Origin: a virus
Lineage: Duplodnaviria; Heunggongvirae; Uroviricota; Caudoviricetes
Virus record (IMG/VR): IMGVR_UViG_2548876865_000009
Span: 1 to 15,979 of that record
Reading direction: 5' to 3' (one strand)
DNA: 15,979 nucleotides
In this document: positions 7,248 through 7,732 of the stretch, piece after piece
Layout of the letters: each line of letters starts with the position of its first letter
How positions within the stretch are numbered: the first letter of the stretch is position 1
Translations under genes and position numbers: made by a program
The notes under the pieces: generated by a model
The model's database searches: none
Told to the model about the DNA's origin: nothing
The model's input: the letters and a program-made list of their open reading frames with translations, nothing else

Positions 7248-7457
7248 AAACGGTTTGCGGGAAAAGGATAGTTAAGTAGAATTGCAGCGGGTGCTTGAGG
7301 CTATCTGCCTCGGGCATGAACACCAACGGCAGATAGAGAAAAGCCCCAGTTAACATTACGCGTCCTGCAAGACGCTTAACATTAATCTGAGGCTCAATCC
7401 ATGCTGAACACATGTAGGTTAGCCTCTTACGTGCCGAAAGGCAAGGAGAAGCAGGCT

Positions 7458-7613
7458 ATGAAGCAGCAAAAGGCGATGTTAATCGCCCTGATCGTCATCT
7501 GTTTAACCGTCATAGTGACGGCACTGGTAACGAGGAAAGACCTCTGCGAGGTGCGAATCCGAACCGGTCAGACGGAGGTCGCTGTCTTCGTAGACTACGA
7601 ATCTGAGAAGTAA
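7458..7613 (+). CDS. hok: Hok/Gef-family membrane toxin (HokD/RelF-like), 51 aa; an in-frame upstream ATG at 7401 would give 70 aa
   Basis: MKQQKAMLIALIVICLTVIVTALVTRKDLCEVRIRTGQTEVAVF closely matches recalled HokD; AGGAGA Shine-Dalgarno at 7444-7449; GC hairpin 7621-7642 downstream. Confidence 0.85.
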   Translation: MKQQKAMLIALIVICLTVIVTALVTRKDLCEVRIRTGQTEVAVFVDYESEK

Positions 7614-7732
7614 GAGACCTGGCGGGGGAGTAATCTCCCGCCACCTCTGATGTGTCAGGCATCCTCAACGCACCCGCGCTTTACCATACTGAAAATGCTG
7701 TTTGAATGTTCATCTCTGAAAGAGGACTATGA

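Follow-up and report, generated by a model that had tools for sequence, protein, structure and literature searches.

An intact hok/mok/sok toxin-antitoxin module of the hokW-mokW-sokW type in the early and nin region of a lambdoid prophage

The window, by which we mean the whole 15,979-nt stretch of DNA that was analysed, stems from a lambdoid prophage and spans its early and nin region. The genes come in the order DUF1391, HigB-like/HTH pair (976-1640), cI-like repressor, YdaS, YdaT, replication genes and DUF1627, DUF551, hok, YgiW/BOF, DUF968, RusA, Q antiterminator, DNA methylase, three tRNAs, SASA esterase and holin. The hok gene thus lies between the DUF551 and YgiW/BOF genes, with DUF551 as its immediate upstream neighbour. 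A preliminary description of this DNA had pointed to a HokD/RelF-like toxin of 51 aa, and to an in-frame upstream ATG with a GAGG Shine-Dalgarno sequence that would give a 70-aa form. Both were confirmed, the longer frame being the mokW of phage 933W, and the coding features are as follows.

7458-7613, plus strand: hokW, a 51-aa Hok/Gef membrane toxin
7401-7613, plus strand: mokW, 70 aa, made up of 19 aa joined in frame to HokW; the 933W annotation names it mokW
7389-7392, plus strand: the mok Shine-Dalgarno sequence GAGG, 8 nt upstream of the ATG at 7401, paired with GCCCC (7343-7347, in ucb) in the closed fold

HokW matches Pfam PF01848 (HOK_GEF) with an E value of 1.1e-22 and a score of 79.8 bits against a cut-off of 22. 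It is identical by 92% to K-12 HokD, by 80% to HokC and by 45% to Hok of plasmid R1, and T25, R26, K27, L29, C30 and E31 are invariant when it is aligned with these three. The Hok family is recognised by an ORF of ~50 aa, an N-terminal transmembrane segment and a TRK-LCE core, all of which HokW has. The hok start is preceded by its own conserved AAGGAG site. The mok ATG is 57 nt upstream of the hok start, and mok and hok share their stop codon. In the family, mok starts 57-58 nt upstream of hok, within the Sok target and with its own Shine-Dalgarno sequence, and so does the frame from 7401.

The locus has close relatives with names. When the features of the 933W GenBank record (AF125520.1) are placed on window coordinates, sokW falls at 7339-7409 on the minus strand, mokW at 7401-7613 and hokW at 7458-7613. 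Nucleotide identity to 933W is 98.8% over 7248-7650, and only five substitutions separate the two over 7248-7700 (7269, 7286, 7366, 7620 and 7621). The coding sequence is untouched, as are the sok promoter and the target region, and two of the five, 7269 and 7286, fall within the putative hok promoter. The Rfam family sok (RF01794), which models the plus-strand leader of hok mRNA, matches 7289-7463 with 113.5 bits against a gathering score of 59, covering model positions 1-157.

The 403-nt stretch is matched in 4716 of 5426 complete E. coli genomes, at a median of two places per genome. Identity is 100% in two bovine isolates and 98.8-99% in Stx-converting phages. Incidentally, in one E. coli genome where identity over the hok stretch is 100%, relBE belongs to that prophage as well. 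The RefSeq label at the window locus is ‘Hok/Gef family protein’ only, with mok, sok and the mRNA elements omitted.

For comparison across the family, 80 hok loci were fetched from contigs representing one genome per species, and a covariance model of our own was built from six family members with the Rfam structure. The model scores 136 bits on the window, and it finds a complete leader at 74 fetched loci in addition to the window. With the same model, no leader was found in K-12 hokD or in two fetched loci, L013 and L018, which share the short upstream stretch of K-12 hokD.

We read the region as an intact hok/mok/sok type I toxin-antitoxin module, the hokW-mokW-sokW of 933W/Sp5-type lambdoid prophages, which in E. 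coli are of the Shiga-toxin type, with a probability of about 0.93. The locus is not new, as it was already named in the 933W annotation and functionally characterised in 2021. The module in the window is canonical, intact and ordinary.

The antisense side of the module consists of the following.

7339-7409, minus strand: sokW, 71 nt, where the sokW misc_RNA of 933W maps
7416-7444, minus strand: sokW promoter, with -35 TTGCCT at 7444-7439, a 17-nt spacer and -10 TAACCT at 7421-7416
7350-7384, no strand assigned: clade-specific apical extension of the Sok hairpin, in which the TTAACATTA copies are the stem arms around GCGTC-N6-GACGC

From the two minus-strand hexamers with their 17-bp spacer, the preliminary description had proposed a Sok-like antisense RNA that would end near 7345. 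The hexamers are indeed present at 7444-7416, and the proposed RNA matches sokW of 933W at 7339-7409; sokW RNA of the Sp5 copy was detected by northern blot (PMC8621323). The window has a single occurrence of the promoter pattern, where 0.07 would be expected by chance. Relatives keep the geometry of the sok promoter: all 69 rows of the alignment have a 17-nt spacer, the -35 element is TTGCCT in 45 of them and the -10 element fits TAnnCT in 54. A scan of 7150-7750 for generic σ70 promoter and terminator consensus sequences reported nothing, and this is uninformative because the sok and hok promoters are weak consensus matches below the threshold of the scan.

When SokW is folded from 7409 to 7339, the free energy is -30 kcal/mol, with a z-score of -5.0 relative to shuffled sequences. 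The predicted layout is a 14-nt single-stranded 5′ tail (7409-7396), a long hairpin (7395-7343) and a U-run. The 5′ tail is complementary to 7396-7409, that is, to the mok AUG and the target-hairpin loop CUGAACA. In both sequence and predicted fold, SokW agrees with what characterises the antisense RNAs of this family, namely that they are encoded in cis, are ~60-70 nt long, start from a promoter within the 5′ region of mok on the other strand, and have an unpaired 5′ tail as well as a terminator hairpin.

The preliminary description had also recorded a hairpin at 7360-7375 flanked by direct repeats. The palindrome GCGTC-N6-GACGC is found there, and the TTAACATTA repeats (7350-7358 and 7376-7384) turn out to be the two arms of the upper stem, pairing with each other on the minus strand through two G-U pairs. 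The whole hairpin (7343-7395) has a folding energy of -26.8 kcal/mol on the minus (Sok) strand versus -18.0 kcal/mol on the plus (mRNA) strand. The upper stem and its GCGTC-N6-GACGC tip make up an insertion of ~20 nt that neither the Rfam consensus nor five other members (R1, hokC, Photorhabdus, Pantoea and Leclercia) have. This extension is present in 15 of the 69 distinct rows, all in the HokW/HokD-like clade. The strand asymmetry of the hairpin was considered as family-wide evidence for an antisense RNA and rejected as such; the innermost palindrome behaves oppositely in loci L032 and L033, and the asymmetry is a statement about the window only.

The mRNA side of the module consists of the following.

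7254-7282, plus strand: putative hokW mRNA promoter, with -10 TAGAAT at 7277-7282 and a weak -35, either TTGCGG at 7255-7260 or TTTGCG at 7254-7259
7289-7677, plus strand: full-length hokW (mok-hok) mRNA, ~390 nt, its 5′ end placed by the Rfam and covariance-model match and its 3′ end approximate
7289-7301, plus strand: tac, the 5′ end of the mRNA, GGGUGCUUGAGGC, pairing with fbi in the full-length form or with ucb (7341-7347) in the open form
7299-7338, plus strand: 5′ hairpin, Rfam helix 2, containing the 9-bp inverted repeat of 7301-7309 with 7328-7336
7389-7425, plus strand: Sok-target hairpin, Rfam helices 5 and 6, with the mok AUG in its 5′ arm
7615-7648, plus strand: 3′ stem-loop, with the core GGCGGGGGAG-TAAT-CTCCCGCC at 7621-7642
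7662-7676, plus strand: fbi (fold-back inhibition), UCCUCAACGCACCCG, complementary to tac

The segment 7254-7282 is the probable promoter of hokW mRNA; in the alignment with K-12 hokC, TAGAAT has the same spacing to the conserved GGGTGC 5′ end as TATAAT has there. The repeats that had been noticed earlier were all recovered independently by a repeat finder, which extends two of them, the 9-bp inverted repeat in the leader to 7290-7309 with 7328-7347 and the GC hairpin after the stop to 7615-7629 with 7634-7648. The loop of the target hairpin, CUGAACA (7404-7410), begins with a YUNR-type CUGA.

RNA folding of both strands had been suggested as a check. It gives a z-score of -7.1 versus shuffles for the 397-nt RNA 7289-7685, which is, like the above-mentioned -5.0 for the antisense strand, far better than shuffled sequences. 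Together with the RF01794 match, this bears out the earlier proposal of a folded mRNA of the hok type. In the fold of the 397-nt RNA, the first ~12 nt are paired with 7664-7676. The duplex of tac (7289-7301) with fbi (7662-7676) has an energy of -21.5 kcal/mol, and the repeat finder detects a perfect 8-nt inverted repeat (8/8) between GCGGGTGC at 7287-7294 and GCACCCGC at 7670-7677, 375 nt apart.

This long-range pairing recurs in the relatives. The distance between the 5′ end and the best partner of tac is conserved (median of 367 nt in 63 distinct loci), and tac and fbi covary across the 63 loci, GGGUGC occurring with GCACCC and GGGCGC with GCGCCC. The Mixta locus has several compensatory changes in tac and fbi. 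The shuffle z-scores of the tac/fbi duplexes are modest (median of -2.3) because the tails are GC-rich, and the argument rests on positional conservation and covariation. From the position of fbi and the tac/fbi covariation across loci, the unit ends near 7677 rather than at 7650. The toxin-antitoxin unit is therefore ~7254-7677, larger than the range 7248-7650 that the preliminary description had given, which contains all the elements it listed but leaves out fbi (7662-7676). Downstream of fbi, no intrinsic terminator was seen. By analogy with R1, the 3′ stem-loop probably protects the 3′ end of the mRNA once this has been processed to its translatable form.

The open form is a different matter for folding programs. 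In ViennaRNA, the minimum free energy fold of the 3′-truncated mRNA has a local 5′ hairpin resembling a metastable structure, not the tac-ucb helix, so thermodynamic prediction alone fails to reproduce the activation switch. When the tac-ucb helix is enforced, the best fold of the leader comes within 2.7 kcal/mol of the minimum.

Covariation supports helices 2 to 6 of the leader. In the alignment of 69 distinct rows, 75.5% of the cells form standard pairs, compared with 36-44% in slid controls, in which the pairing partners were shifted by 1-3 columns, and 30 of 47 pairs are changed on both sides, compared with 9-20 in these controls; the alignment was fitted to the covariance model, which favours the structure somewhat. 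Changes on both sides affect 10 of the 14 pairs of helix 2 (the 5′ hairpin) and 8 of the 13 pairs of the target hairpin (helices 5 and 6). Helices 3 and 4, the mRNA-strand image of the Sok terminator hairpin, show Watson-Crick swaps only and no one-sided (G-U) changes, as expected if the hairpin is needed on both strands. Helix 1 (tac-ucb) is paired in 94.9% of the cells in the 69 sequences, and being nearly invariant it carries little covariation information. Helix 7 is poorly supported, with 45.5% of its cells paired.

Function has been studied on a near-identical copy. Takada et al. examined in 2021 the hokW locus of prophage Sp5 of the Sakai strain (PMC8621323). Expression of the 51-aa HokW arrests growth, and the locus with its own sokW is harmless (PMC8621323). 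Mutation of the sokW -10 element abolishes the antitoxin activity and restores toxicity, and sokW supplied in trans rescues partially (PMC8621323). Both sokW and hokW RNAs are detected by northern blots (PMC8621323). After mitomycin C treatment, sokW RNA is lost and HokW builds up in the inner membrane in a RecA-dependent manner, and deletion of the locus halves phage release (PMC8621323). RNase III and Hfq are partly required (PMC8621323).

The oligonucleotides used in that study can be placed on the window. The sokW northern probe YO-592 corresponds to 7380-7409 and the hokW probe (PMC8621323) to 7417-7446, and each matches without a mismatch. The mutagenic primer YO-421 (‘pro-less’) departs from the window sequence at four positions only, 7415, 7416, 7419 and 7421, so that the TAACCT hexamer is destroyed by it. 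Toxicity, sokW expression and promoter dependence have been established by others for a copy that is 98.8% identical.

The elements of the module are present, with conserved geometry and with covariation across relatives, and they suggest the following course. A stable mRNA of ~390 nt would start from ~7289 and be closed at first: tac at its 5′ end would pair with fbi towards its 3′ end (7662-7676), and the anti-Shine-Dalgarno sequence GCCCC would sequester GAGG, the Shine-Dalgarno sequence of mok. By homology to R1, slow 3′ trimming to the stem-loop at 7615-7648 would remove fbi. Again as in R1, tac would then pair with ucb (7341-7347), which would free the mok ribosome-binding site and form the Sok-target hairpin. 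This 3′ processing and refolding to the open form we infer from the R1 system. Ribosomes from the mok AUG (7401) would open the hok start (7458), and the 51-aa HokW would insert into the inner membrane.

On the opposite strand, SokW would be made from TTGCCT-17-TAACCT, running from 7409 to 7339. Its 14-nt 5′ tail would pair with the target loop and the mok AUG and so block translation of mok; when mok translation is blocked, hok translation would be blocked as well. The duplex of SokW and mRNA would be marked for RNase III. The toxin would appear once SokW is lost, for example after prophage induction.

The reading frame of mok deserves separate consideration. No out-of-frame ORF with a start codon was found across the hok start in the window sequence. 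The preliminary description had remarked on this absence, and it was right in doing so insofar as such an ORF is a valid expectation for R1; as an oddity of this locus the remark does not stand, because the in-frame 70-aa ORF is itself mok, the ordinary mok of the hokW clade. In our survey of the fetched relatives, an ATG at -57 in frame with hok is found at 41 distinct loci and is the commoner arrangement; this group includes the window, hokC, Photorhabdus, Pantoea and Mixta. An R1-like ATG at -58, out of frame, is found at 20 loci of the same survey. In seven of these 20, mok is 70 aa and hok 52 aa long, with mok ending 4 nt ahead of the hok stop, the lengths being those reported for R1. The IncFII ‘R1-type’ plasmid copy has mok in frame. 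The generalisation that mok is always in frame, as in K-12 mokC/hokC, 933W and that plasmid copy, was considered and is refuted by the out-of-frame mok of R1 at 58 nt.

Since mok and hok are in frame, any ribosome from 7401 must make a peptide that contains all of Hok. One could therefore argue that the real toxin is the 70-aa MokW-HokW and that the 51-aa protein is not made separately, the whole being one ORF with a regulatory N-terminal extension. The shared frame and stop and the prevalence of the in-frame arrangement (41 versus 20 loci) agree with such an argument. However, the 51-aa ORF alone is toxic when expressed (PMC8621323), and the hok start has a conserved AAGGAG of its own. Moreover, an R1-like mok is out of frame, where only translation up to the hok start matters (PMC9841398). 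The 19-aa leader peptide also speaks against it, because its reading frame switches between clades while its nucleotides are conserved, which points to the RNA and the sok promoter, and not the peptide, as what is under constraint. We regard this alternative as quite unlikely, and keep the 51-aa HokW as the toxin of the module.

A weaker form of the idea may be kept in mind with the 51-aa toxin in place. With mok in frame with hok, each mok translation event must give a 70-aa, N-terminally extended Hok. This longer isoform could have distinct membrane targeting, toxicity or timing at prophage induction rather than being a mere by-product of coupling. That the isoform is functionally distinct and, separately, that the apical extension of SokW lies behind the partial dependence on Hfq and RNase III are conjectures that we rate as rather improbable. 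Neither was found addressed in PMC8621323 or PMC9841398.

Many chromosomal hok loci are degenerate. The locus could likewise be a decayed, non-functional remnant resembling several chromosomal loci of K-12, in which the toxin ORF survives and the RNA elements or their expression are lost. Signs of decay do exist among its relatives: a stop codon lies within 57 nt upstream of hok in 19 of 75 relatives, at seven surveyed loci the ORF from the ATG stops before hok, and K-12 hokD lacks the whole leader. In the window itself, the putative hok promoter differs from that of 933W at two positions, which could be counted in the same direction. On the other hand, the leader in the window matches the models end to end, and mok is open, with its ATG and GAGG. 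The target hairpin and the 3′ stem-loop are intact, as are fbi and the sok promoter, and the coding sequence and the sok region (save position 7366) are identical to those of the functional Sp5/933W copy. The comparison with R1 and chromosomal hok loci, which the preliminary description had called for, thus finds a complete leader with conserved regulatory elements and not a degenerate remnant. Decay is very unlikely, and we retain the reading of an intact module.

That hok here is the distal gene of an upstream operon without antisense control, as in relB-relE-hokD of K-12, has next to no probability and is refuted by sequence comparison, for although the toxin is 92% identical to K-12 HokD and the window holds a HigB (RelE-like)/HTH pair at 976-1640, this pair is 5.8 kb from hok, in the immunity region and across the replication and nin genes, a DUF551 gene is immediately upstream, and the leader and sok are complete in the window, with homology to the K-12 locus only from ~7443. 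A relBE linkage or a relBE-hokD operon arrangement was accordingly rejected as a description of the locus. The preliminary description was correct in placing this hok outside a relBE context; the absence of relBE is the normal state.

As a discovery, the hokW module has little weight, having been named in 933W and characterised in 2021. Its interest is partly one of annotation, where RefSeq leaves out mok, sok and the mRNA elements, and partly that the window shows the intact ancestor form of the truncated K-12 hokD/relF. The Sp5 study suggests that, upon induction, the host lyses faster and about twice as much phage is released owing to the module (PMC8621323), which would make its presence in a non-stx lambdoid prophage relevant to prophage biology.

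The closest known system is that of the Stx2 phage 933W and of Sp5. Between it and the window there is no difference in the part that encodes HokW and MokW, in the sok promoter, in the 5′ tail of Sok or in the target region, and the flanking genes are the same, DUF551-type upstream and YgiW/BOF downstream. The differences from 933W are those at 7269 and 7286 in the putative hok promoter, at 7366 in the apical loop of Sok, and at 7620-7621 at the base of the 3′ stem-loop, where they add one base pair in the window. The surrounding prophage is a different mosaic from that of 933W/Sp5, with no stx in the window.

The R1 hok/mok/sok system has the same tac, ucb, GAGG mok Shine-Dalgarno sequence with similar spacing, Sok-target hairpin, 3′ stem-loop and fbi. 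Its sok promoter is likewise inside the 5′ region of mok, with a 17-nt spacer, and in the closed fold its mok Shine-Dalgarno sequence is paired as the one in the window is with GCCCC (7343-7347). The tac/fbi long-range interaction and the R1 mechanism are described in PMC9841398. In R1, mok starts at nt 116-118, preceded by the same GAGG motif, and hok at nt 174-176, 58 nt apart and out of frame; mok stop codons downstream of the hok start have no effect, and toxicity is lost when mutations weaken the final stem-loop of the truncated mRNA (PMC9841398). Hok of R1 is only 45% identical to HokW, and its context is a plasmid whereas here it is a prophage. While mok is at -58 nt and out of frame in R1, it is at -57 nt and in frame in the window; and while the R1 mok ends 4 nt before the hok stop, mok and hok of the window share their stop, so the R1-type geometry is not found here. 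R1 is also without the ~20-nt apical hairpin extension of SokW.

K-12 hokC(gef)/mokC/sokC resembles the window in having mok in frame, at a 57-nt offset and with a shared stop, and Sok overlaps the mok start by 9 nt in each. The first 14 nt of the hokC mRNA (GGGTGCTTGAGGCT) are identical to those of the window, and the Hok proteins are 80% identical. SokC lacks the apical extension and is 59 nt long, compared with 71 nt for SokW. The hexamer equivalent to the -10 element is poor in hokC (CACTCT), in contrast to TAACCT in the window, and IS186 adjoins hokC in K-12.

K-12 hokD (relF) of the Qin prophage, the third gene of relB-relE-hokD, has the closest toxin among these, with 92% identity. It occupies an equivalent prophage position, upstream of DUF968 and Q, and keeps the 3′ UTR including the stem-loop and fbi. 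On the other hand, it has no tac, ucb, sok gene or mok start. Its homology to the window begins at ~7443, a few bases before the hok Shine-Dalgarno sequence, and what lies further upstream is the 3′ end of relE. Because the homology starts only there, with relE upstream and the 3′ UTR retained, K-12 hokD/relF is, on this sequence comparison, a truncated derivative, the exception and not the norm, and the window represents the intact state.

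How far mok starts ahead of hok varies among the 80 hok loci surveyed, which were taken from one-genome-per-species contigs (L006-L085). In 41 distinct loci the offset is 57 nt and mok shares the frame of hok; in 20 it is 58 nt, which puts mok out of frame as in the prototype plasmid R1. A 1-nt indel in the leader, the structured 5′ part of hok mRNA, decides whether Mok is a Hok with an N-terminal extension or an overlapping, unrelated peptide. In the window, the Sok-hairpin region of the leader (7368-7382, CAAGACGCTTAACAT) and the beginning of the hok coding sequence (7476-7490, ATGTTAATCGCCCTG) form a 15-nt inverted repeat with 80% complementarity, which could be due to chance or could make a further long-range mRNA contact.

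Near-identical hok loci of enterobacterial type were found, mostly on short contigs, under the labels Veillonella parvula MAG, Acinetobacter idrijaensis, Xanthomonas pisi, Ferruginibacter MAG, Streptomyces morookaense and Oscillibacter MAG (L009, L021, L029, L066, L067 and L068), and these are probably contaminating or mis-binned E. coli or plasmid DNA. Several Photorhabdus genomes in the fetched set carry multiple hok loci. On a Photorhabdus temperata contig (L038), two complete hok leaders (456-606 and 1085-1236) lie ~630 nt apart, and thus represent tandem hok/sok modules.

For the 100% identical E. coli copy (NZ_AP042495.1; 8211-8366 of our fetched locus L002), RefSeq (PGAP) gives ‘Hok/Gef family protein’ only, mok, sok RNA and the leader being absent from that annotation, and several Stx-phage records name the hok gene ‘RelF inactive antibacterial toxin protein’ or ‘hypothetical protein’.

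Immediately 5′ of the hok promoter is an unannotated ORF, which may encode a small membrane protein:

7164-7247, plus strand, hydrophobic ORF of 27 aa, MTWPEAFTTVGIAMAVALVVYSICRWG

Its start ATG shares ATGA with the stop of the DUF551 gene. The ORF is retained in the Stx2 phage 933W with 81% amino-acid identity, and identical copies occur in three other fetched loci.

The immunity region holds a pair of genes resembling a type II toxin-antitoxin pair (976-1640), adjoined by the repressor gene:

976-1278, plus strand, HigB-type (RelE-like) toxin (PF09907, E 6e-33)
1281-1640, plus strand, HTH_3 protein, directly after the toxin
1687-2085, minus strand, cI-like repressor

The pair looks like a second toxin-antitoxin module of the prophage that carries hokW-mokW-sokW.

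The 15,979-nt window has no stx gene. A cluster of tRNA and sRNA genes occupies the site where Stx phages carry stx:

12238-12865, three tRNAs (ARAGORN), then STnc100 and AgvB
12597-12805, sRNA STnc100 (176.7 bits)
12806-12865, minus strand, anti-GcvB sRNA AgvB (56.6 bits; gathering score 56)

ARAGORN identifies the tRNAs as Met-CAT, Arg-TCG and Arg-TCT. E. coli OkiPb01678 has a similar tRNA cluster, with 99.6% identity across the stretch. RefSeq names the first tRNA there tRNA-Ile, as opposed to the ARAGORN assignment of Met-CAT in the window.
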